DNA of 64,000 nucleotides, taken from NCBI GenBank assembly GCA_963422365.1, contig OY729426.1, forward strand, positions 1,120,001 through 1,184,000, read 5' to 3'. A program made the translations under genes and the position numbers. The DNA is from Nitrospirales bacterium (GTDB lineage: Bacteria > Nitrospirota > Nitrospiria > Nitrospirales > UBA8639). Shown here piece by piece: positions 50,458 to 64,000 of the stretch. The notes beneath the pieces are model-generated. The model did not search any database. It was not told where the DNA came from and was given only the letters and a program-made list of their open reading frames with translations. Numbering within the stretch: the stretch's first letter is position 1; the number at the start of each line of letters is the position of its first letter.

Positions 50458-52158
50458 ATGACTCATCCGACTTCTTTACTTGAATCGACGTTGGCGCATC
50501 TACCCAACCAGCCCGGCGTGTACCTGATGAAAAGCAAGGGTGGCGAAATGCTCTACATCGGGAAAGCCCGGGTGTTAGCGGACCGGGTTCGTTCGTATTT
50601 TCAAAAAGGAAGCGACCTGAGCCCCAAAACTCGCGTCTTAACGGCGTTGATTCATGACATTGAGACGATCATCACCAAATCTGAATTAGAGGCCCTCTTG
50701 CTCGAAAGCAATCTGGTGAAACGCCATCGTCCTCGGTTCAACGTGGTGCTCCGCGACGATAAGCACTATCCTTACCTCCGTCTGCCGGTGAAGGAACAGT
50801 TTCCCCGTCTCTCGATTGTGCGTCGCGTGAAGAACGATGGGGCGCTGTATTTTGGTCCCTATGTGCCGGCAGGAGCGCTTCGAGCAACCCTCAAAGTCAT
50901 CAAAAAAGTTTTTCCGCTGGCGACATGCACGATCGACATTGATGGGACAGCCGACCGGGCCTGTTTGGAATTTGAAATCAAGCGCTGCATGGCGCCCTGT
51001 ACCGGCAATCAATCGAAGGAAGACTATCATCGCATCGTCAAACAGGTTCGATGTTTTTTGGAGGGGCGGGATAAGGAATTGCTGGATGGATTACGAAAGG
51101 ATATGGAAACGGCTTCTGACCACCAAGCATTTGAAGAAGCGGCCCGACTGCGGGATCGTATGGTGAGCATCTCCAAGACGTTGGAAAAACAGCGTGTGGC
51201 TCAAATCGGGCCAGTGGATCAAGATGTTCTGGGCTTGGCCAGAATGGGACCGGCGGCGGATTTGCAACTGTTGTTTGTGCGCGGCGGCTTATTGATCGGC
51301 CGCAAGGATTTTTTTTGGGCTGATACGAAGGAGGCTTCCGATGAGGAGTTGATTCGATCGGCCATTGAACAATTTTATAATAGAGAAACGAAGCCCCCCA
51401 AGGAACTGTTAGTGTCCGAAGTGCTGTCCGACCGGGAATTGATTCAACGCTGGCTCAGTCAAAAGAAAGGCCGGCGGGTACGGATACGGATTCCCGAACG
51501 AGGAACAAAATGTCAACTGCTCCAATTGGCCCAAGAAAATGCCGCCGCGGCCCTTGGAGAGCATGTGCATAACACTGCGGTGGAACACAAGGAAGCCGAA
51601 GACCTGCAGTGCTTGCTTAGGCTGCCGAAGCTGCCGAGTCGGGTGGAGGGATTTGATATTTCCAATACCATGGGTACCCATTCCGTGGCCTCGATGGTGG
51701 TGTGGGAAGATGGAAAAATGAAGAAATCGGATTACCGGCGGTTTCGTATCAAGACAGTCGAGGGGGCAAATGACTTCGCGAGTATGCAAGAAGTCGTCAA
51801 ACGCCGGTATGGCCGAGGAACCCTCGGCACCCGGAACGAGAAGGCGTTGCCTCTTCCCGATCTCATCCTGATCGACGGGGGAATGGGACAATTGGGTGCG
51901 GCGGTGGAGGCCTTACGGTCTCTCGGTCTTGGCCACCTTCCCCTGATCGGATTAGCCAAAGCCAAAGGCGAGAAAGAAGAACGAATATATGCACTCGGGC
52001 ATCGCGACCCGCTCATTCTGTCTCCCATGTCGCACGTTTCTCGATTACTCCAGCGCATCCGGGACGAAGCGCATCGCTTTGCCATCACCTACCATCGAAA
52101 ACTTCGAGGCCAAGCCTTTGTCGTGCCTTCCTCGAAATTAGCCAAAACGCGCAAATAA
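50458..52158 (+). CDS. uvrC: Excinuclease ABC subunit UvrC (no C-terminal HhH visible)
   Basis: PGVYLM..YIGKA (GIY-YIG), EGFDISN, DFASM, PDLILIDGG.GQ, RDEAHRFA. Confidence 0.95.
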   Translation: MTHPTSLLESTLAHLPNQPGVYLMKSKGGEMLYIGKARVLADRVRSYFQKGSDLSPKTRVLTALIHDIETIITKSELEALLLESNLVKRHRPRFNVVLRDDKHYPYLRLPVKEQFPRLSIVRRVKNDGALYFGPYVPAGALRATLKVIKKVFPLATCTIDIDGTADRACLEFEIKRCMAPCTGNQSKEDYHRIVKQVRCFLEGRDKELLDGLRKDMETASDHQAFEEAARLRDRMVSISKTLEKQRVAQIGPVDQDVLGLARMGPAADLQLLFVRGGLLIGRKDFFWADTKEASDEELIRSAIEQFYNRETKPPKELLVSEVLSDRELIQRWLSQKKGRRVRIRIPERGTKCQLLQLAQENAAAALGEHVHNTAVEHKEAEDLQCLLRLPKLPSRVEGFDISNTMGTHSVASMVVWEDGKMKKSDYRRFRIKTVEGANDFASMQEVVKRRYGRGTLGTRNEKALPLPDLILIDGGMGQLGAAVEALRSLGLGHLPLIGLAKAKGEKEERIYALGHRDPLILSPMSHVSRLLQRIRDEAHRFAITYHRKLRGQAFVVPSSKLAKTRK

Positions 52159-52369: not shown

Positions 52370-52606
52370 ATGGCCATACAGATCACAATCAGAGGTGTGT
52401 CCGAAGAAGTCCGTGATGAACTCGCGGTGCGCGTGGCACTTCAACGCCAGTCCATGCAGGAATTCCTCCGCTGCGAATTGGAGCGTATCGCGTCATGGCC
52501 CTCCGTTGGCGCGTGGCTGCAAGAAGTTCGCAACCGCAAGGCAGAAACAGAAACGCGGGTCCCACCGTCCCGTATCCTGCGTGCCCGTGCCCCGGATCGG
52601 CCGTGA
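52370..52606 (+). CDS. FitA/VapB-like ribbon-helix-helix antitoxin
   Basis: ITIRGV.EEVRDEL...SMQEFLR; stop overlaps the toxin start (GTGA). Confidence 0.8.
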   Translation: MAIQITIRGVSEEVRDELAVRVALQRQSMQEFLRCELERIASWPSVGAWLQEVRNRKAETETRVPPSRILRARAPDRP

Positions 52607-53007
52607 CGACCGTCGTCGACGGATCCGTGCTGGTTGCGGCCTTGGTCGACTCAGGGCGTGAAGGGAGGTGGGCGGAATCCGTGCTTGCCGAAGGCTTGCT
52701 GGCCAGTCCGGAAGAGGCCTTGGCTGCGGCCAGCAACATCCTGCGTCGGGTGGAACGGATTGTCCGGATCTCACGCATAGAGTCCGAAAGCGCGCACGTT
52801 GACCTGCTGCGACTCGATGTGGAGTGGTTCCCCTTCGCGCGGCCCTTCGCCGAGCGGGTATGGGCATTGCGCGGCAACCTGACCAGCTACGATGCCTGGT
52901 ACGTGGCGCTGGCCGAGGCACTTGATTGCCCGCCGGTGACACTTGACCGGAAGCTCAGCCGTGCCATCGGCCCCATGTGCAAGGTCATCACTCTGCCCCG
53001 TTCGTAG
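52603..53007 (+). CDS. vapC: VapC PIN-domain toxin
   Basis: VVDGSVLV, NLTSYDAWYVALAE, VTLDRKL. Confidence 0.85.
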   Translation: MTTVVDGSVLVAALVDSGREGRWAESVLAEGLLASPEEALAAASNILRRVERIVRISRIESESAHVDLLRLDVEWFPFARPFAERVWALRGNLTSYDAWYVALAEALDCPPVTLDRKLSRAIGPMCKVITLPRS

Positions 53008-53074
53008 ACAAGAAAGAAGAACGAATAATTCCCAAAGAATGCAAGCGGCTGGCTGAGGATGACTTCTCGGTGGC

Positions 53075-53250
53075 CGAAGTCTTGAAGCACAAGGAAAGTG
53101 GAAAGGGTTCCATTCCATCAGGATGAATGACCAGTGGCGATTGGTGTTTCGATGGAGTGGGGGTCATGCCTATGGCGTGCAAATCATCGACTATCACGAA
53201 AGGAGGCAAAACGCAGTGAATAAACAACCGAAGAATCCTTTTCATCCCTA
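53075..53250 (+). pseudogene. HigB-like toxin 3' remnant plus first codons of a HigA-like antitoxin
   Basis: GKWKGFHSIRMNDQWRLVFRW...VQIIDYH, then AGGAGG and GTG-NKQPKNPFHP, truncated. Boundaries approximate. Confidence 0.72.
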
Positions 53251-53415
53251 CCTGCTCGACAGCTTGGGTCACTGGAACGCGACGAAACTCCTACGTGAAT
53301 GTGTTTCGCGGTGTTACCCTCTGCCATGGGTTAAACGGGAACCATGGCAGGCTGCCGATCCGGATTTCGCCTCCAAGCCCGATGGAATGGAACCACCGGT
53401 GAGGTGTAATCGTGC

Positions 53416-53538
53416 GGCGACCGTGACTTCCATGTCCGCGCCGCCGTGGTCCTAGCCAAGTTCGTGAATGAACAAGGGTTGGAAATCGAAGTTCTCCAGA
53501 TAGTTTCTGATCTTATCTCTGCCGAGGATCGTCGGCAT
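53416..53538 (-). pseudogene. 5' remnant of a paralogue of the methyltransferase at 57719-61034
   Basis: MPTILGRDKIRNYLENFDFQPLFIHELG*DHGGADMEVTVA versus MPSNLDRNRVRNHLENFDLRLLFIEELGWDHGGTDTEATVA. Confidence 0.8.
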
Positions 53539-53656
53539 TCGGAATGTCCTGGGTTGGTTGTCAGTTTTTTTTCGTTCTCAATCCACAATCTTCAGTCCAC
53601 AATCCTTTGCCTACAGATGCCACACATCGGACAAGGCGGCCATCTTACGGCAAAAA

Positions 53657-53696
53657 CAAATAGTATACTATATTTGCAATAATACACTATTTTTGC
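53657..53696 (+). promoter_or_regulatory. Palindromic operator-like sites upstream of abiEi
   Basis: CAAATAGTATACTATATTTG (perfect core ATAGTATACTAT) followed by the related AATAATACACTATTTTTGC, in an AT-rich tract. Confidence 0.45.
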
Positions 53697-53789
53697 GAAT
53701 TATCATATTTATTATATAGAGATCAGTTGACTCCTTCTGGAGGTAAAATTAAAATTATATTTTAAATAATTCTCGTAAATAGTGAAATT

Positions 53790-54617
53790 ATGAATATAGA
53801 ATATACTTATTCGGCAGATAGCTCACTACCAATCGGCCGGCGCAAACTTGCAGCCGTGATACGGGCCGCCAACGACGTCATCGAAATTGATGATGTCGTA
53901 GCAACGCTTACTACCGGCAGAATTGAAGCCTCCAAGCTGCTGTCCCGATGGGCCGGTCAGGGCTGGTTGCGGCGTGTTGGTGGAGGTGCCTATGTCCCTG
54001 TGCCTCTGGATTCGCTTGACAGCCAACATGTGCTTGAAGACCCCTGGGTGCTTGTTCCTGCCCTTTATACCCCGGCCTATATTGGAGGCTGGACGGCAGG
54101 GGAATACTGGGATCTTACGGAGCAGTTATTCCGCGACGTCATCATCATGACGGCACAGCCGGTTCGCGAAAAGAGTCAGGTCCGTCACGGGGCACGGTTT
54201 AGGCTATACCACATTCAGGAACGTAAAATCTTCGGCATGAGGCCCGTCTGGCGCGGTTGTTCCAAAGTGCTGCTGTCGGATGTTCACCGGACCGTGATCG
54301 ACATGTTGGACAATCCTGCCCTGGGCGGCGGGATTCAACACGTATCCGATTGCCTGGGTGCTTATCTGAAACGCTCCGATCGTAGCGATGATACGCTCAT
54401 TGCCTATGCCGAGAGGCTTGGTAACGGAGCAGTATTCAAGCGCCTCGGCTTTTTGGCCGACCAACGTTCTGACACTTCCCATTTGACTGATGTTTGCCTG
54501 GCACATCTGACGGCAGGCAACGCCAAGCTCGATACCACCCTCAGATGCTCCCGCCTGATTTCCAAATGGCGCCTCTGGATCCCGCCAACTTGGATGGGAG
54601 AAATGCCGCATGATTGA
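53790..54617 (+). CDS. abiEi: Type IV TA AbiEi-family antitoxin / transcriptional regulator
   Basis: N-terminal wHTH (LSRW..QGWLRRV..GAY), YIGGWTA.EYWDLTEQ, SD..RT.IDML..P..GGG, KRLGFL; overlaps the toxin. Confidence 0.85.
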   Translation: MNIEYTYSADSSLPIGRRKLAAVIRAANDVIEIDDVVATLTTGRIEASKLLSRWAGQGWLRRVGGGAYVPVPLDSLDSQHVLEDPWVLVPALYTPAYIGGWTAGEYWDLTEQLFRDVIIMTAQPVREKSQVRHGARFRLYHIQERKIFGMRPVWRGCSKVLLSDVHRTVIDMLDNPALGGGIQHVSDCLGAYLKRSDRSDDTLIAYAERLGNGAVFKRLGFLADQRSDTSHLTDVCLAHLTAGNAKLDTTLRCSRLISKWRLWIPPTWMGEMPHD

Positions 54618-55995
54618 CCAGCGCGAGATTATCGACGCTGCGACTGAGCTTGGTCTCAATCCCCATGTGATTGAGAAGGACTACGTCCTGGGTTGGGTAC
54701 TCTGGGGTATCTACGGTCACGACAAGTTGGCCGGAAGCTGGATATTCAAAGGCGGCACCTGCCTGAAGAAGTGCTTTTTTGAAACCTATCAATTTTCGGA
54801 AGACCTGGATTTTACGCTCACCGATTCTTCACATGTAGATGCCATGTTTCTCAAAACGGTATTCGCCGAAATCGGCGAACGCATATACGAAGAGACTGGT
54901 ATCGAGGTGCCGACAGACTTTCAGCAATTTGAAATCTACGCAAATCCGCGTGGCTTGGAATCCTGCCAGGGGCGGATCGGCTATCAGGGGCCAATATCGC
55001 CGCCGCGTGGCAAGAACATGCCACGGATCAAAGTTGACCTGACCGCGGATGAATGCGTCGTCTTGCCTCCGGTTCGGGCTCTTGTCTTTCATCCATACGG
55101 CGATATCCCAGCCAGCGGGATCGTCGTACAGTCCTATGCCTATGAGGAGGCTTTCGCCGAAAAAATCCGTGCGCTTGCTGAGCGAGCGCGGCCCCGTGAC
55201 CTTTACGATGTCATTAACCTGTTCCGGAACGCTGAAGCACGGCCAGCTGCCTCTGTGCTTCTCGACGTGCTTCGTCAGAAATGTGATTTCAAGGGCATCG
55301 GTCTCCCTGTTCTCAACGCACTTGAGTTGCACAAGTCCGATTTAGAGGGTGCTTGGGGCACGATGCTCGCCCATCAACTCCCCGCTCTGCCGCCTTTCGA
55401 GTGGTTCTGGCATAAGTTGTTGGAATTCTTTGCGTGGCTTGAGGGCGGGGCGGCACCGGCCATCCCTGCTGCCTACAAGAGAGCTATCGGCGAAGAGCTT
55501 ATCAGAGAACGTACTTTACGTCTGCCGGTCTCAAGGGCCGTCCGATCCTATCTGGAGATCACCCGATTCGCTGCTTCCAACCGGCTTTGCGTTGAACTCG
55601 ACTACCGGAGTTCGACCAGGCTGATCGAACCGTATTCGCTACGCCGCACCAAAGAAGGTAACATTATTCTTCATGCTCACAACGTGGATAGGAATGAACA
55701 CAGGAGCTATCGCGTAGACCGCATTCAGGGGGCTCGAGTGACCGACAAGATTTTTACACCACGTTTTGAGATCGAACTGACACCAACTGGCCCGGTTGTC
55801 ATAGCGCCGACAGCCGCATGTGAAACCTCAGGCTCCTTGCGAAGCGCCAGCGGTCCAACCTACGTTTATGAGTGTTCGTTTTGCGGAAAACATTTCAACC
55901 GCGGACAGCAAACAACGTTCCTCAATCCACACAAGGACACGAGTGGTTATCCTTGTCCTGGCAGATATGCCCAGTGGATAGATGCACGGTATTAG
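54610..55995 (+). CDS. abiEii: AbiEii/AbiGii nucleotidyltransferase toxin fused to a C-terminal WYL domain and Cys/His tail
   Basis: IEKDYVL, FKGGT, FSEDLDF, AEKIRAL.ER.RPRDLYD; WYL-like ELDY..STRLIEPYSL...RSYRVDRI; tail CSFC...H...C. Confidence 0.87.
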   Translation: MIDQREIIDAATELGLNPHVIEKDYVLGWVLWGIYGHDKLAGSWIFKGGTCLKKCFFETYQFSEDLDFTLTDSSHVDAMFLKTVFAEIGERIYEETGIEVPTDFQQFEIYANPRGLESCQGRIGYQGPISPPRGKNMPRIKVDLTADECVVLPPVRALVFHPYGDIPASGIVVQSYAYEEAFAEKIRALAERARPRDLYDVINLFRNAEARPAASVLLDVLRQKCDFKGIGLPVLNALELHKSDLEGAWGTMLAHQLPALPPFEWFWHKLLEFFAWLEGGAAPAIPAAYKRAIGEELIRERTLRLPVSRAVRSYLEITRFAASNRLCVELDYRSSTRLIEPYSLRRTKEGNIILHAHNVDRNEHRSYRVDRIQGARVTDKIFTPRFEIELTPTGPVVIAPTAACETSGSLRSASGPTYVYECSFCGKHFNRGQQTTFLNPHKDTSGYPCPGRYAQWIDARY

Positions 55996-56199
55996 AGGTA
56001 GTGGGCGATTACTTTGATGTACCGGAAAAACTAAAAATCCTGATGAGAACGGACGTGTCAATCCCGAAGTGTCGGGTCATAGGGCTGATCAAAGAAGCAA
56101 GGTCAAGCTTAGAGCAACCGGACCCTTCTGGCAGGGTGTTGTGAAGTAAGGATTGTCGTAATATGCCTACATTCGCGAGAAGAAACGGAGGCCCAGCGT

Positions 56200-56470
56200 A
56201 TGGGTATCACAGTCGTTACCAGCAGAGCGTTTAATCAAGATGTGAGTACAGCCAAGAGGGACGCTTTGAAGGGGCCGGTTTTATCACTGATCACGGCGGT
56301 ACGGCGTATGTCTTATTGACCATTGAGGACCATCAAAAGATCACGGAGAAGGAAGCAAGCATCGTTGAATTGTTGGCCATGCCGGAAGCCACCGATGTTG
56401 ATTTTGAGCCACTCCGCTTGAACCGCGAAATGCATAGAACGGCAGACCTGTCCTGATGTATCTGCTTGAT
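56200..56470 (+). pseudogene. Frameshifted Phd/YefM antitoxin plus MYLLD stub of its VapC toxin
   Basis: MGITVVTSRAFNQDVSTAKR..GPV / ITDHG..YVLLTIE...ADLS*, with one base missing near 56280; TGATG overlap with MYLLD. Confidence 0.8.
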
Positions 56471-56707
56471 GTCTTTTCTATGACTGACAGCAACAATTAT
56501 CACGTCTTCTCCGGTGACTTCATAGACAATGCGATAGTCGCCAACACGGATACGATACAGCCGTTCGTATCCCTTCAACTTTTCAACTCCTTGCGAAGAA
56601 GGCAACGCAGCCAGTTCGAGTATCGAGAGTGCGGCATGCCTCTGAATATCTTTCGGCAGCGAACGCAAGTCTTTCAAAACACTGCGTTTAATCGTCAGCT
56701 TCGACAT
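56333..56707 (-). CDS. relE: RelE/ParE-family toxin (native 3' end appears lost; reads into neighbouring remnant)
   Basis: KDLRSL, KLKGYERLYRIRVGDYRIVYEV...VSHRKDI. Confidence 0.78.
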   Translation of the reverse strand: MSKLTIKRSVLKDLRSLPKDIQRHAALSILELAALPSSQGVEKLKGYERLYRIRVGDYRIVYEVTGEDVIIVAVSHRKDIKQIHQDRSAVLCISRFKRSGSKSTSVASGMANNSTMLASFSVIF

Positions 56708-56884
56708 AGGCTAGAAGGTCCCTCAAGGAGGAAATGGGAATGCTCGGCTCGTTTTTTCGCTCTTCGATGATCCGGAGGTCTTCCAACTCTTCCAAACGCT
56801 CGACCAAGGCCAGGAAGTCTTGAAGCGGCAAAACACGGCGGTCCTTTGCCCGTTCGCATCAACAAGAAATTGTGTGGTCATCAT
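56688..56884 (-). pseudogene. Frameshifted antitoxin of the RelE toxin
   Basis: MMTTQFLVDANGQRTAV / PLQDFLALVERLEELEDLRIIEERKNEP...*, with a frameshift near 56830. Confidence 0.7.
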
Positions 56885-57015
56885 AGTTCCTTACGATTTT
56901 TGCTTATACACCGATCACTGGCTGTCAGCCTCACCCCGTAGCCTACAGAGCCCCACTGTGCGTCAACCGGAGACAGATGAGATGAGGCTATCGACTTGCA
57001 CTCCGCTCATTCAAC

Positions 57016-57711
57016 CTACGACCTGTTAGCTGCAAAGACTGGACGGTCTATTCTGTCCACAATCAACGGCGACGGGTCTTGAGCCGAAACCGGCACAACG
57101 CCAAGCTCTACGAGGTGCGCGTTGTCCGGAGAGTCCAGGGTAAACACTGGTTTTTCGTGGGTGAGGGTGGCCTTGCAGAGTTGTTCGATCTTGCCGCCTT
57201 TTTCGGCGTGGGTGATGAGGAGGCGGTCGGCGAGAGAGGCGACGTAGGCGTTGCGTCTGGCTGCCATGGCTGTGGTTGGGCGATGGATGTTGTCGTCGAA
57301 AAAGGAGAGGAGCAGCAGGCGGCCTTCGGCTAAGGGCTTCTTCCAGCCTTTTGGAATCCGCATGTGGCCGAGTCCCAGTGCCGGGCAGACCACGATGGAT
57401 GCCCTGCCACGCAACAGGAGATTCAGGCACTCCTTTTCCATCGGTGATTGGAAACCGCCGATGATCGTCATATCCACGTCTCGGAGCGCCCGTGCGAGAT
57501 CATAGGTCTTGAGAATCGTGTCGCCGGGAGAGCGAACGGAACAGAAAACGGCAATCGGCGCAGTATCGAGGATGCCGAGGTCGCCTTTCGTCGTAACTGT
57601 CAACGGACAGCCGTCATCAGAGCAGCGTCGCAACGCTGATGGATAGTCAATTGCGTCCGGCGATCGCCGACAAAGGTCAGCAGTCACAACTGTGCCGTGG
57701 TTACGTAGCAT
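57016..57711 (-). CDS. Short DprA/Smf (SLOG-fold) protein
   Basis: GDLGILD..IAVFCS, IIGGFQSPME, RLLLLS, RRNAYVASLAD..I.HAEKGG; starts 7 nt after the methyltransferase stop. Confidence 0.7.
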   Translation of the reverse strand: MLRNHGTVVTADLCRRSPDAIDYPSALRRCSDDGCPLTVTTKGDLGILDTAPIAVFCSVRSPGDTILKTYDLARALRDVDMTIIGGFQSPMEKECLNLLLRGRASIVVCPALGLGHMRIPKGWKKPLAEGRLLLLSFFDDNIHRPTTAMAARRNAYVASLADRLLITHAEKGGKIEQLCKATLTHEKPVFTLDSPDNAHLVELGVVPVSAQDPSPLIVDRIDRPVFAANRS

Positions 57712-57718
57712 TCCGCTG

Positions 57719-60700
57719 TCATGTTTTACTCAATCCTACGCGGTACTTGATGTCGTAGTTGACGATGAAATCCAGTTCCTCGTCGGTGAAGCCGTAGTGT
57801 TCGTCCAACACGCGGTCGATCTCGTCGATGATTCCTTTAGATTTCCGAGGATAAAATTCATCGTACTTGACCTTGCCTGTTGTCTTGTAACTTGCGATCT
57901 TTTGTTTACATCGCAGTTTGTAATCGTTCATTAGTCGATTTGCTAGGACCTCAAGGTTTCTACAAATCTCGGTTTTCATCTCACCAATGCTAATTGGAAA
58001 AGAGAAAATCTCGTGACGACCGCAGTGGTATCCTTCGAACAGCGAATACCACCACCAGAAGAAAAGATTCGAATTGAGCACGGCTAACAAAGAACCATTC
58101 GCTTCCGATGGTTCCAACTGATAGGCCTTATAGTCCTCAGATTTTTTCTGGCCGTCAACTTCACTCCAAAAGTAAGGTATGAAATTAAACGCTTTAATGT
58201 AGTTATATGGAATACGATGAACGTAGAATGAGGGAGAAGTCGGACGTTGTTTATATGATGCCGGACTAAATCGACTAAGTTTTCGCAGGATCTGCTCGGC
58301 AATCCTGTCTCCGAGTTTGGGAACCAGACAAAGATCTTGGTCGAGATATGACTTGTGATAACGAAGGTTCGAAAATAAATCGCTTCTTTCTTCCGGTTTC
58401 CAACGATTATAGAACGTAGCGCAAAATCTCGATTTATTGATACGTTCGGATAGTATCAGTAGACAGAGTCTCTGTTTTGCGCCCTCGAACAGCTTGCTGG
58501 GATAGACGTCGAACGTGCTTAGATAAGTATGTCGTTTCTCATCAACAAGAAGCCGTTGCAGGGTGTTCATTCTGGCTGTTGTTTGCAAGCTGAGGGGAAT
58601 GATAAAACTAAATCTAGCCCGTGGGTGTAACAACGTAAGTGCGCGCTCGGTACAAAAAGCGTAGATATTTCCACACTGCTCGGTTTTTAGGCCATTCAAT
58701 TGATAGATTGATTTGATCTGAGAATACTCCACATACGGCGGGTTGCCGATTGCCACGTCGAAGCCGCCCTTGTGCATAATGCCCTTGTGCATAATGCCGT
58801 AGAACTCGACGAACCAGTGGAAGGGCTGGTGGCTGCCCCGCCATTTTTGGTATGCCTTTCCGTCATCGGTTTTGACGCCGTAATCACCGGCTAAATACTC
58901 ATCTAATTCGTCGCGCAGGTCATTGAGTCGTTCCCGCAATTCCACCTTGGTGCTGGCAAACTTGCTGGCATCCATGCCGTGCTCGGTCTGCATTTCGCGA
59001 AATGTACGAAAAGCGCGGTCGGCGATTTCGGCGCGTTCCTCTATCTGAGGAAGCGACAATTGCTTTATCAGGTCGGCGCGCAGCACCCTTTTTACTTCGT
59101 CCAGCGACGTGAAACCGACAAGTGTGTTGCCGGCGCGGATGTTGAAGTCGATGTCCGGCAACGGCTCGATCTGGTCGTAGGATTCGAGCTGGGCCACCAG
59201 TTTCAAGAAGAGTCGCAGCTTACAGATTTCGACGGCCTCTTCCATGATGTCCACGCCGTAAAGGTTGTCGACGACGATGGACTTGAGAATGAAGTAGCGC
59301 TCGCTCGCGTGCTTGTCCACGTTTGCCAGCGCCTTACGGAAGTCGCTCAGATACTCCGGGCGGCGGCGCTGCGAACGCTCCAGGTCGTCGAGGAAGCCGC
59401 GCATGGCTTCCAGACAGGCCGTGTACAGCGGCCTCCAGAATATTGAGCGCCGCGAACAGGAACGCCCCTGAGCCGCACGTTGGGTCAAGGACGGAAACCG
59501 CGTTGAGCGCCTTCCAGAAGGCACGCACCGGCTCCGGCCCTTCGCTGCCGGCGATGACATCCAGAGCGAATTTCTCAATGTCCAGATTGTAGGTGATGAG
59601 GTCGTTGATTGACGTCACCTCGCCGGCGGTAAGTTTGGCGCGGACTTGCTCGTAACGCCGGCGGCGGGCGACGTGCTCGCGCCATGTCTCGGTCGGCAGG
59701 GCAAAATCGCGCGGAGCGGGTTTGTTCCAGCTGCTGCGTTTGGATACGTCGTTCAGACCGGCGGCTATCTCAGCCGGCAGTTCGCATTTTTCCGCCAACC
59801 GTTCTTTTTTGTGGATGTCATACGTGATGCCGTGGCGGACCGCCTCGTAAAAATAGCGGTCAGGGTTGTCCGAGAGCAGCCGCCACACCCCGCCGTCGGG
59901 CTTGAAGGCAATGGCATACGCCTGTTTCGCCCGGTCGAACAGGAACGGGATGACCGTGTTGCGGGCGATGTAGCCGGTGATATCCTCCTTGGTGTAGTAG
60001 GCGCCTATCTGCTTCTGGTTGATGTACTTCTCGAAGATGCAGCCCAGAATGTCGGGGTTGATCTCGTTGTCGCCGCGCAGCGGCCGGTCGTCGAGATGCC
60101 ATTGGTAGGCGTCGAAAAAATCGAAAATCTTCGCAAACGCTTCATCGGGAATCTCGATCTGCGGGTTGTTCCGCTCCAGGTCGTGCTTCTCGAACAAGCC
60201 GCCGTTGAGGTACGGCACCTTGCCCAGCAGTTTCGCCAAGTCGGGATCGCGTTTGGTCTCGGGCAGTCCCAGCCCCTCGTGGAACAGCCGCAAGAGGAAC
60301 AGCCGGTAGAAACTGAGGAAGTTGCCGTCTCCCCGCTGCTGTCGCACGCTTTTCAGACGGTTGTGCAGGTAGTCCGTGTTGTTGTCCAGGAAGCCGCGCT
60401 TCTGGATGAAGTAGATGAACATCATCCGGTTCAGCATCAGCGAGGCGTACCATTCCCGGTCGGCCACGTTCTCGATACCCTCGATGAATCCCAGAAAGGC
60501 GTGATGCTCCTTCTTGAAACGGTCGTAGAACCGCTTGGTGACTCTCTCGATATCAAAGGCCTCGTGTACCCGGCCAGACACGTCAACAATGGTGAGATCG
60601 TCTTCCTCGTCCAGCGTGAAGACAAGCTGCTCCAGCTTCTGGATCAGCGCTTCGCCTGATTGTTGCAGGTGGTAGATGTGCTGACGCGGCCTGTCGGGCT

Positions 60701-61034
60701 GGCCGGGCTCGCGTTTCACCCATTGCCAATAGTGGGTACTCCGGTCGGGCGGGGCGTACACGATGATGTGTTCGCGGACGGACTTGGCGACGGCTTTCTC
60801 GATCTTCTGGCGGACGGGATGAGCGGGAAACGCTTTGTCCGTCTCTGCAACGCATTGATAGGCAACCATGCCGCGCTTGTGGGCGATGGCTTCGAGAACG
60901 AACGTCGTGCCTGCGACTGTAGCCTCCGTGTCCGTGCCCCCGTGGTCCCAGCCAAGTTCCTCGATGAACAGCAAGCGGAGGTCGAAGTTCTCCAGATGGT
61001 TTCGGACTCTATTTCTGTCAAGATTACTTGGCAT
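57719..61034 (-). pseudogene. Large N6-adenine DNA methyltransferase (Eco57I/type IIG-like), split by one +1 frameshift at about 59432
   Basis: Upstream frame: YLNGGLF, GAYYT, VLDPTCGSGAF. Downstream frame: LYGVD, NIRAGNTL, FHWFVEF, GNPPY, YDIKYR. CTG GAG G CCG CTG TAC shows an extra G; may be a sequencing error. Confidence 0.88.
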
Positions 61035-61047
61035 TTCATCTGCCGTC

Positions 61048-64000
61048 CTATCCAATCAAACCCATTGAGCAGATGATACTTGGTTCCTGACGTTCGTCTT
61101 CTTCATGTACGATGCAAAGCCGGTCTTCATCTCTAAGCGCGACGACCAACCCGGCAAGGGCCTGGTCGGAGATGCCGCTACGCAATTGCCGGTTCAGCGT
61201 ATCCACCGCGGCCTGACTCAACGGATAGCGATAGATGTCGTCAATTGCGCGGCGTAGCGGCGTACTGTCGAACAGTGTGCCCTTGACGCTTTCGGCATAG
61301 CTCTTCAGCTGCTCGTAGGTACGAAACCGCGCCCCAGAGGGGCGACCGAGCTGTCCTCCGACCTGTTTTTCCTCGCCGGCAATGCGCTCCGCAGCTCTGC
61401 TTACCAAATCGTGATGGGTCTCATGACGCGGCAAGGCCGGCGTGTCGGGCGGGCATTCCGCAGCCCGCAAAATCTCGAACTGGCTCTTGGTCACACTTTT
61501 GCCGTCGCGGTCAATCCAGGCTAGCGCATCGTATCCCTGGGCGGTCCGCATGTACACCAGCGCTCCTGCCGGTCGCTCCGGTCGTTCATGGTAGGCTTTT
61601 GAGGAATAGACCACAGACGGCAAGTCCTCGATCTTCTTCCTGAGCGTCGGATTATCCGCAGTTGCGTTCCGCCAAATCTGATACGCGTATGAGGACAGGT
61701 CGACGTCCGTCTCGTCGTCGTTGTCGAGAATCCCTGCCTTTTCGTTATAGAGGTCAAGCACGGTCTGTTTGGCCTCGTCCTCGAAGAACGCCTCGTCGGT
61801 CCCGACCACTTCTGCGTTCTCGTGGAGGCGTGTCCGCACGCAGGCGCGAAGCCGGATCAGACGTTCAACCCCCTCGGCTGGAAGAAAGGAATAGCACAGG
61901 ATGTCGTGCGCCTGTTGGCCGATGCGGTCAATACGGCCAGCCCGTTGAATCAGGCGCATGATGGCCCATGGCAGGTCGTAGTTCACCACAACGGCACAGT
62001 CCTGCAAATTCTGTCCTTCGCTGAGCACGTCTGTGGCGATCAGCGCGCGCAGTTCCTCGTCCGTGGGGATGCGCCCCTCTCTGCCGTTGCTCTTTGGGCT
62101 GAAGCGCCAAGCTATTGCCGTGGGATCGGGAGAGTCCCCCGTGACGGCGGCCATGTTTGTCACGCCGCGTGCGGCCAATTGCTCGTACAGGTAACGCGCC
62201 GTATCCGCGAACTGAGTAAAAACGAGCGCTTTTTGGCCGGAATGCTTTTCCGTGAGCAGCCGTTGCAGAGCGTCGAGCTTAGCGTCGGCTCCGGGTTTCC
62301 AGCCGCCGCCGCGAATCAGCAGCCCGCGTAGGGCAGCGGCATCCGCCTGCAGGTCTTTACGCAGTTGCGCAACGAAAAGATGCGCGCCCAGCCAGCGGAA
62401 CCGCCGCTTGTATTTTTCGACGTACAGCTTGTAAACCTCGGCGGCGCGGGTGCGGAAATCCTCCTCCGTGCGCAGCGGTACGGATACGGGCGCGGCCGGC
62501 TGCTCGGCGTTTTCCGCGTCTTCGTCGTCAAACGCGCTGCCGCCGGCGTCTTCCGCGTCCTCATCGAAGGACCCCGCGTCCAGCAGTCCCGCGTCGAGCG
62601 TCCCGATCGGCAGCGGCAGGCCGTGCTCGATGGCGTGGAGAAAGACGAAGTTCCTGAGCGCGTGCCGCTCGACCGACAGCAGGAAGACATGGCCGCTGCT
62701 TTCCAGGCGCTTGAACAAATTGGTGCGGCAGAAGCCCATCAGCCGTTTGCCCGCGTGCGACAAGTCTTTCAGGATCTTCGCCTCGGCCTGCGTGGGCGGT
62801 GCGGGTAGCGACTCTATGACGTAATTGCCAAGACCGTAACGCGGGAGTTCCAACCCGTTTATGGCGTCAACCATGTTGTCCGCGAACAGCCGGGCATACT
62901 GACCGTCGATGTCGAACCGGAGCGTCTTCGGGACCCGCGTCGGGAAATAGGAGCGCGTACCGTCTTCGAACGTGAGATATTTGCGACCGTTGGCCGAGTC
63001 CGTAGCGGCGTAGTTATCTTGAACGAAGCTGCGCGTGCGGCGGACAAGATACAGGCGCATCAATTCTCGCCAGTCGTCGGCGTGCTCGGATTTCTCAAAC
63101 GCGGCCAGGGAACGAACAGGAGCCTGATGTTGCCGGATGAACTCGGTCTCGCCGATCTCGCGCAACAGCCGCTTGGGCCGAATCCCCAGATCTTCGTCCT
63201 CGGGCACGAACAGCAGAAGTTGGCCGGCAAGATCCGCATAGGTCTTGTTGTAGGGCGTCGCCGACAGCAGGATGCATTTGCTGTCATTTTTCTGGATATA
63301 TTCCCGGATGGCCCGATACCGCTTCCCTTCGCGGTTCCTCAGATTATGGCTTTCGTCTATGATGACGAGCCGGTAGCGGCGCATGTCGGATAACTCCCCG
63401 ATGACGCGGCTGATCGACAGCACCCGCGCCCGCAGGCGGTACTGTTCGCGATGGTCCTCCCACATGGGAACGAGATTTTTCGGACAAACGATCAGCGTTT
63501 CCAGACCGTGATCGTCCTCGAACACGCGCGCCAGCGCCGTTGCCATGAGCGTCTTGCCCAGTCCGACCACGTCGCCGATGATGACGCCGCCCCGCCGGTT
63601 CAGATGATGCGCCGCGATCCGGACGGCGGCGGTCTGGAAATCGAGGAGCTTGTTTCCGAAATCCGTCGGGATACGAAATTCGGTCAGGCCGGCCCGTGCT
63701 TCCTGCGACAGGTGGTACGCGATTTTGATGTAGATATGGTGCGGCGAGATCAGTTCTTCTCGCGCCCAGCTCTCATCGATGATGCGGGCCAATTCGTCGG
63801 AAATATCGATGCACCGGTGGTCGCTCCAGCGATCATTGAACCACGCCGCGAGCTTTCGGCAGGCATCATGATCCAGCACGTCGACGTTCAATTCTCCCTG
63901 CAGGGAAAGGCCGGACAGCGTGAGATTGCTGCTGCCCAGGTAGGCAGTGCAGGGATTGATCGGGTCAGGGCGGAATAGCAGGTAGAGCTTGGCGTGCAGC
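61048..64000 (-). CDS. Phospholipase D-nuclease / SNF2-like helicase fusion (5' end beyond window)
   Basis: The open frame extends to the window end: LHAKLYL...GSSNLT (PLD). Then DVVGLGKT, IIDESH, LSATP, FTQFADTA, SEGQNLQ, QRAGRIDR. Confidence 0.9.
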   Translation of the reverse strand, partial: LHAKLYLLFRPDPINPCTAYLGSSNLTLSGLSLQGELNVDVLDHDACRKLAAWFNDRWSDHRCIDISDELARIIDESWAREELISPHHIYIKIAYHLSQEARAGLTEFRIPTDFGNKLLDFQTAAVRIAAHHLNRRGGVIIGDVVGLGKTLMATALARVFEDDHGLETLIVCPKNLVPMWEDHREQYRLRARVLSISRVIGELSDMRRYRLVIIDESHNLRNREGKRYRAIREYIQKNDSKCILLSATPYNKTYADLAGQLLLFVPEDEDLGIRPKRLLREIGETEFIRQHQAPVRSLAAFEKSEHADDWRELMRLYLVRRTRSFVQDNYAATDSANGRKYLTFEDGTRSYFPTRVPKTLRFDIDGQYARLFADNMVDAINGLELPRYGLGNYVIESLPAPPTQAEAKILKDLSHAGKRLMGFCRTNLFKRLESSGHVFLLSVERHALRNFVFLHAIEHGLPLPIGTLDAGLLDAGSFDEDAEDAGGSAFDDEDAENAEQPAAPVSVPLRTEEDFRTRAAEVYKLYVEKYKRRFRWLGAHLFVAQLRKDLQADAAALRGLLIRGGGWKPGADAKLDALQRLLTEKHSGQKALVFTQFADTARYLYEQLAARGVTNMAAVTGDSPDPTAIAWRFSPKSNGREGRIPTDEELRALIATDVLSEGQNLQDCAVVVNYDLPWAIMRLIQRAGRIDRIGQQAHDILCYSFLPAEGVERLIRLRACVRTRLHENAEVVGTDEAFFEDEAKQTVLDLYNEKAGILDNDDETDVDLSSYAYQIWRNATADNPTLRKKIEDLPSVVYSSKAYHERPERPAGALVYMRTAQGYDALAWIDRDGKSVTKSQFEILRAAECPPDTPALPRHETHHDLVSRAAERIAGEEKQVGGQLGRPSGARFRTYEQLKSYAESVKGTLFDSTPLRRAIDDIYRYPLSQAAVDTLNRQLRSGISDQALAGLVVALRDEDRLCIVHEEDERQEPSIICSMGLIG

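Follow-up and report, generated by a model that had tools for sequence, protein, structure and literature searches.

Why should an AbiEii nucleotidyltransferase toxin, encoded directly beside its antitoxin, carry two further domains in the same reading frame? The question arises from a gene pair in a stretch of 64,000 nucleotides of a Nitrospirales bacterium (assembly GCA_963422365.1, contig OY729426.1, positions 1,120,001 to 1,184,000; hereafter the window, whose numbering is used unless a locus is named). A sequence-only reading had described this toxin as a complete AbiEii domain fused to a WYL-like domain and a putative zinc-binding tail. We find that the gene pair and the three-domain architecture of the toxin are real. 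The fusion is not new, its architecture and the idea of sensing having been in print since 2014; the new element appears to be a sister clade with the same architecture, an apparently intact active site and no adjacent antitoxin, which suggests that the toxin may be switched by its own extra domains. The pair and the parts of the toxin are as follows (aa, amino acids).

53790..54617, + strand: abiEi antitoxin gene (275 aa; PADLOC AbiEi model PDLC02271, E 3.5e-121)
54610..55995, + strand: toxin gene, the AbiEii-WYL-zinc fusion (461 aa)
54610..55455, + strand: AbiEii/DUF1814 nucleotidyltransferase (NTase) domain, residues 1-282 (PF08843 at 35-267, E 3.4e-33, above cut-off)
54790..54792, + strand: codon 61, Gln where relatives have Arg, likely attenuating (equivalent of AbiEii R63 and MenT3 R76 by motif position)
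55522..55779, + strand: WYL domain (Sm/SH3 barrel), about residues 305-390, no WCX (PF13280 at 315-377, E 1e-7, 32.3 bits against a cut-off of 21.8)
55780..55851, + strand: linker, predicted to be disordered (pLDDT below 50 at residues 395-414)
55852..55995, + strand: C-x2-C-x15-H-x7-C tail, a predicted zinc knuckle (conserved ligands C422, C425, H441 and C449)

The NTase motif residues K47-G-G-T, S63, D65, D67, E184-K185 and R196-D197 are present in the toxin, and K47-G49, S63, D65, D67, E184, K185, R196 and D197 are at least 99% conserved among relatives. An AlphaFold2 model of the toxin, built on a 46-sequence alignment, has a pLDDT of 84.3 and a pTM of 0.77, the linker being the only stretch below 50. 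In structure comparisons, its residues 1-282 match MenT3/TglT with Z 19.5 (root-mean-square deviation, rmsd, 3.4-3.5 over about 260 aligned residues) and MenT4 with Z 17.9, and Foldseek matches the toxin to the MenT/AbiEii fold at E 4e-7. The AbiEii domain itself is thus confirmed by family match and fold; its supposed completeness is not, because Gln61 interrupts the R-F-S-x-D-x-D motif. The catalytic aspartates and the phosphoacceptor serine correspond by motif to those of MenT3/TglT and MenT4, but identity is 12-18%, these enzymes are without WYL, and their nucleotide and tRNA preferences are not transferable.

The C-terminal part likewise models as the proposed WYL barrel. Its region at about residues 300-387 matches PafBC (Z 11.1, rmsd 2.2, 86 aligned), CapW in complex with single-stranded DNA (ssDNA) (Z 10.2, rmsd 1.7, 78 aligned), BrxR and DriD, with a range over the four of Z 9.5-11.1 and rmsd 1.7-3.1; by sequence, the WYL part gave only weak or spurious matches in the PDB. 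The landmarks RLIEPYSL, RSYRVDRI and CSFC..H..C were all confirmed in the translation. Where the tail is present its ligands are at least 97% conserved (C422 186/192, C425 185/186, H441 182/186, C449 183/186), which upholds the putative tail, with zinc as a prediction; against Pfam Zn_ribbon_8 the tail scores 15.4 bits, under the 34.4 cut-off. Neither a helix-turn-helix (HTH) nor a WCX gave a Pfam match in the toxin, and in the model the WYL domain is followed by the disordered linker and a small beta tail. The toxin shares its barrel and basic groove residues with CapW, BrxR, DriD and PafBC but differs from them in having neither HTH nor WCX and in replacing the WYL Tyr, and its output would be enzymatic, not transcriptional.

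The sequence-only reading had suspected that such fusions might already be in databases without a described mechanism, and this proved correct. Makarova et al. in 2014 listed a class 'AbiGII-like-nucleotidyltransferase+WYL+C2H2' and proposed ligand sensing (PMC4012209); supplement DataSheet6 gives five proteins, e.g. one of 486 aa from Afipia sp. 1NLS2. The class has the same order of NTase (DUF1814, the PF08843 family), WYL and zinc tail and a similar length (about 470-490 aa), but its label says C2H2 where the tail ligands here are C-C-H-C, the comparison being with the class as listed and its five proteins lying outside our alignments. In the passages of that paper available to us, neither the AbiEi pairing nor an antitoxin-less clade is mentioned. 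The PADLOC AbiEii model PDLC02317 (396 positions) matches residues 1-398 (E 5e-195) and spans both NTase and WYL. We found no experimental study of an AbiEii-WYL fusion in the literature searched, most subscription journals and bioRxiv supplements being outside its reach.

The closest described systems, AbiE of Streptococcus agalactiae and Lactococcus lactis, have the same abiEi-abiEii order and overlap and the R-x-S/T-x-D-x-D motif in common with the window's pair, with phosphoacceptor S63 here and T65 there; the toxin here is about 180 aa longer (WYL, linker and zinc tail) and has Gln at the R63 equivalent. According to the parts of a 2026 preprint available to us (10.64898/2026.01.19.700257), AbiEi binds AbiEii and induces T65 phosphorylation, and an AbiEi loop, D85-E86-I87, is needed. 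In its introduction AbiE ranks fourth in abundance among defence systems; the activation trigger is stated to be unknown, and WYL is not mentioned in those parts. The S. agalactiae system is reclassified there as type VII, so the 'type IV' label given to the window's pair by the sequence-only reading is outdated for that AbiE.

To see how tightly the domains are coupled, relatives were ranked on residues 1-278 (the NTase) alone, so as not to favour fusions. WYL was carried by 115 of the best 120 matches, query included: 90 had WYL and tail, 25 WYL only, one the tail only, and four proteins of 273-327 aa neither. The 120 best whole-protein matches are 395-496 aa long, most with both Pfam labels, and 78 of the 150 best matches to the C-terminal part retain NTase sequence, with no other recurring N-terminal partner seen. 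In an alignment of 238 sequences, WYL (mean column conservation 0.755) is conserved to the same degree as the NTase (0.748), and the tail less so (0.669). We also surveyed the best 80 of 598 GTDB loci; they were picked on the score of the whole protein, a choice biased towards full-length genes. In 79 of them the WYL domain is in frame, and 59 have the zinc motif; the cognate abiEi lies directly upstream in 78, the remaining two being cut by a contig end. The locus titles span Proteobacteria, Acidobacteria, Dadabacteria, Latescibacteria and others. On these comparisons the fusion is widespread, and NTase and WYL are tightly coupled. An assembly artefact as its origin was ruled out: contigs of three public runs from two studies, which may include the source of the assembly itself, match the stretch exactly, and the fusion also occurs in relatives. 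A fourth run contributed no reads.

A second clade has the same domains without the partner gene. Its starting point was three distant plasmid matches with 26-27% identity and no abiEi upstream, from which a family (clade B, the solo clade) was drawn as the 120 best of 885 matches, 54 of them aligned. It aligns over its full length with the window's family (hhalign probability 100, E 1e-57), and its model has the same layout (pLDDT 86) with matches to MenT4 and MenT3 and weak ones to PafBC, CapW and DriD. K47, G48, G49, R61, S63, D65, D67, K185 and D195 are invariant in 54/54 sequences, as are all four zinc ligands (n=54), and the EPYxL motif is common to the solo and paired clades. Pfam missed the WYL domain in both clade B proteins tested (n=2).

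L087:2501-3898, L088:2501-3739, L089:2501-3895, L095-L174 and L193: loci of the solo AbiEii-WYL-zinc clade

We examined 83 clade B loci (the best 80 of 504 metagenome matches and three plasmids), which form 63 groups below 90% identity; more than 1 kb of upstream sequence was available in 62 loci, and more than 1 kb on both sides in 32 groups. An AbiEi profile found nothing among the 3017 open reading frames (ORFs) of these loci (best E 0.57, or 0.16 with a broader model), and the same profile recovered all 19 control loci, both fused and unfused ones, with E values no higher than 8e-8. The Pfam AbiEi families had no match among 148 clade B neighbours, nor did the AbiEi profile on the three whole plasmids, a search that held no positive control. 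Other partners were considered and rejected. No neighbour family occurs in more than 5 of the 63 groups; short upstream ORFs, as candidates for a small antitoxin, recur in at most four groups, and of nine scanned two match DUF2158/DUF2188 and seven nothing. The solo clade is rare: it is absent from 401 sampled genomes of one class (that of genome G061), in about six of which the paired fusion occurs.

NTase trees set the paired and solo clades apart (support 80 and 100), with a long stem branch of 1.21 for clade B. FastTree placed clade B with an unfused haloarchaeal protein, but with IQ-TREE (25 rows) the order of the deep branches stayed unsettled, and clade B scores further from the paired clade than unfused proteins do. 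On these data the fusion may have arisen once or twice.

What could hold such a toxin in check? If a DUF1814 toxin is intact and has no antitoxin beside it, something else must keep it off, and the obvious candidate is the conserved C-terminal module; that the solo clade apparently keeps the architecture without the antitoxin gene gives indirect support to direct gating. We tentatively favour the reading in which the WYL-zinc module gates the toxin by binding nucleic acid, and put its chance at slightly below even. By analogy with homologues, the NTase would add nucleotides to tRNA 3' ends and arrest growth, and AbiEi would silence it by inducing Ser63 phosphorylation. The WYL domain and predicted zinc tail would bind single-stranded nucleic acid, a product of DNA damage or of replicating phages or mobile elements, and this would release the inhibited state and turn the enzyme on. 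Such gating would act on top of AbiEi control in the paired clade and in place of it in the solo clade. WYL domains that modulate an enzyme by binding ssDNA or single-stranded RNA (ssRNA) are likewise found in T. elfii Pif1 and Cas13d-associated WYL1, although the enzymes there differ from AbiEii, the dimeric WYL1 is a protein of its own, and neither case concerns the toxin of a toxin-antitoxin (TA) system.

The same parts might instead serve the substrate. WYL, basic linker and zinc tail could recruit tRNA or another RNA and set specificity or efficiency, leaving control to AbiEi alone or, in the solo clade, to low expression. The WYL fold is Sm/Hfq-like, and WYL1 prefers ssRNA (PMC6547453); the Pif1 WYL is titled an accessory ssDNA-binding module and stimulates its enzyme (PMC6789036); MenT3 uses a surface of positive charge to recognise tRNA (PMC11162799). 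The median net charge after WYL is +12 to +13, and the WCX is absent. Recruitment, however, leaves unexplained how an intact toxin persists in 63 independent groups without an adjacent antitoxin, and such a module is absent from unfused AbiEii/MenT enzymes, which modify tRNA all the same (10.64898/2026.01.19.700257, PMC11162799). Because the solo clade needs an off-state without an adjacent antitoxin, we favour gating and regard recruitment, its main rival, as rather unlikely.

The residues of the WYL pocket bear on what a gating signal might be. In PafB of M. smegmatis, R181, R208, R211 and R214 matter for ssDNA binding, as single or combined mutants (PMC11804915). They align to R337, R365, R368 and R371 of the toxin in a weak alignment (E 0.65) that is backed by the fold match, and these arginines are kept in 217, 212, 208 and 195 of 231 relatives (84-94%). 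The WYL Tyr of PafB, Y196, is needed for ssDNA binding (PMC11804915) and maps to I353, a position that is I, V or L in 223/231 relatives; CapW is described as carrying His at the WYL middle position. In CapW and PafBC the ssDNA crevice is shaped by the WCX (PafBC: PMC11804915). Clade B keeps the R181 equivalent in 53/54 sequences, R208 (K/R) in 54/54 and the WYL Tyr in 54/54, and lacks the R211/R214 pair. The pocket is thus only partly canonical: the WCX is missing, the paired clade has lost the WYL Tyr, and the solo clade has lost the R211/R214 pair.

Outside the canonical groove lie family-specific invariant residues, E340, Y342-S-L-R345 and E389. Together with an EPYxL motif common to both clades while the groove residues differ between them, they would suit a switch whose input is a protein (a phage protein or an oligomer contact) and not nucleic acid. 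We consider this improbable, given that the paired clade retains all four arginines of the groove and that characterised WYL domains bind ssDNA or ssRNA (PMC11804915, PMC6789036, PMC6547453).

Several points weigh against gating by nucleic acid. In the pocket, the WCX is absent from the toxin, the Tyr that PafB needs is replaced, and the residue mapping to PafB rests on the E 0.65 alignment; the two clades may also differ in ligand, as their groove residues differ. The paired clade keeps a full AbiEi and needs no extra off-switch, and the existence of unfused close relatives with AbiEi (L176, L181, L183) makes WYL dispensable for the pair. About a quarter of relatives have lost the zinc tail or carry a broken one, the motif being missing in 21/80 loci, and the accessory role of the Pif1 WYL fits substrate binding. 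The AbiEi search in clade B covered the loci and three plasmids, and an antitoxin may lie elsewhere on the host chromosome. Against 32 coliphages, no protection by S. agalactiae AbiE was seen (10.64898/2026.01.19.700257). Finally, the neighbour counts given below have no background control in either clade.

Among 142 nearest neighbours of the paired clade, 69 have a Pfam match; by our own classification 20 are mobile-element genes (integrases, transposases and conjugation genes) and 14 defence or TA genes. A conserved third gene was rejected, the most frequent neighbour family occurring in just 7/80 loci. The toxin gene is present at near full length on 7 of 44 matching plasmids. Carriage by phages was rejected, with 0 matches in 50,697 phage records; IMG/VR contigs account for 4 and 1 loci. 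The distribution is patchy, with a close copy in 1 of 36 same-genus genomes. For clade B, 58 of 139 flanking genes have a Pfam match, of which, classified in the same way, 22 are defence or TA genes, including Shedu, Piwi, SMODS, BrxC/D, Mrr and KAP, and 11 are mobile. We count the frequent company of mobile or defence genes, like the tight coupling of NTase and WYL, in favour of gating.

Mobile neighbours, patchiness and the long clade B stem would all be in keeping with the pair being an ordinary mobile addiction module, the solo clade being a non-toxic RNA- or nucleotide-modifying enzyme, or one neutralised in trans, and the appendage having no role in defence. We judge this the least probable account: it sits poorly with the 22 defence or TA genes among 58 annotated clade B neighbours, a count made by our own classification and without a control, and with the lack of an AbiEi match on the three whole plasmids, in the search without positive control.

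Two clade B loci have unusual upstream genes. At L164:2333-3992, two tandem SMODS-domain genes directly precede the solo-clade gene. Upstream of the Sinorhizobium solo copy, the gene at L089:106-1896 is annotated 'neuraminidase-like'; we presume that its product resembles a Tc-type toxin component.

A stronger version of nucleic-acid gating would make the fusion an immune effector that consists of one protein and gates itself, staying off until it binds single-stranded nucleic acid produced by replicating phages or by DNA damage, with one clade acting as an antitoxin-free, single-gene defence. This is conceivable, if doubtful. Were it true, the single-gene solo system would likely escape the AbiE models in current use, since these expect AbiEi. 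A built-in WYL domain and an antitoxin-less clade make for a one-protein system whose trigger is testable with purified enzyme. Gating in itself would extend WYL sensing from transcription control to direct toxin control; a module that merely holds tRNA would be a modest variant of enzymology. Domain covariation, computed as mutual information, was dominated by gaps in the paired clade (clade A) and gave weak NTase-tail pairs in clade B, and was left unused.

Copies that have lost the tail were inspected separately. A programmed frameshift or readthrough before the zinc tail was rejected: of the 21 loci without the motif, 6 keep remnants after differing stops or frame changes and 15 keep none. 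Judged from these remnants, tail loss reads as repeated decay. Three tail-less copies (L008, L009 and L014), from Thermodesulfobacteriota/Dadabacteria metagenome-assembled genomes, lie among housekeeping genes and have a WYL domain without the RxxRxDR basic motif, which would make it a natural pocket-dead variant.

Is the window's own copy an active toxin? Its motif reads Y-Q61-F-S63-E-D65-L-D67. Position 61 is Arg in 232/234 other sequences and Gln in 0, and the Gln letter is identical in the contigs of the three runs. The copy therefore lacks the equivalent of the arginine that in AbiEii (R63) is stated to be essential for toxicity (10.64898/2026.01.19.700257) and in MenT3 (R76) binds the gamma-phosphate, S78 being the phosphoacceptor (PMC11162799). 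Its linker runs 30 aa to the first Cys, and the region after WYL has a net charge of +2; the corresponding medians in 104 relatives are 48 aa and +12. Departures from conserved columns number three, which equals the family median, yet exceeds most close relatives (0-3), so that the count does not point to general decay of this copy. With Gln61 and the shortened linker, the window copy is probably a weakened toxin. Gln61 lowers the case for an active toxin in this copy, not for the gene's descent. Since the near-invariant catalytic Arg is missing, it would be a poor construct for toxicity or phage assays, and, as it is probably attenuated, the copy is of little importance in itself. Intact homologues include a paired one on a Rhizobium sullae plasmid (WP_051336852.1) and solo ones from Sphingomonas (WP_347092308.1) and Sinorhizobium (WP_180941829.1).

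The abiEi and toxin ORFs share 8 nt on the + strand. The abiEi product had no match in a Pfam scan, unlike with the PADLOC profile, and an AbiEi profile returned no alignment against the PDB. Its T110-E111-Q112 loop is unchanged in 48/48 sequences; by motif position only, this TEQ loop may be the counterpart of the D85-E86-I87 (DEI) loop of S. agalactiae. Promoter inverted repeats for autorepression are a feature of AbiE systems, and a weak candidate precedes the pair.

53640..53810, no strand: candidate AbiEi operator, imperfect inverted repeats, weak (77% AT; arms 53662-53703 and 53766-53807, 74% complementary)

In this AT-rich DNA the best 20-mer repeat has 16/20 matches, which 2/60 mononucleotide shuffles equalled.

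The pair lies in an island of about 12 kb (52370-63891) that also holds a FitA/PIN pair, a ParE-like toxin, a DprA-like gene, an SNF2 helicase and a type IIG restriction-modification gene (57719-61055, - strand), split into two overlapping frames that correspond to the two halves of PADLOC PDLC03628. The island is flanked by what we take to be a uvrC-like gene (50458-52158) and, just past the window end, a leuS-like gene. The same-genus copy, L082 (G014:C2:867903-869122), has 85% DNA identity and carries the toxin in two frames, with the break near residue 232; it is close to the same uvrC-like and PIN-pair sequences as the window copy.

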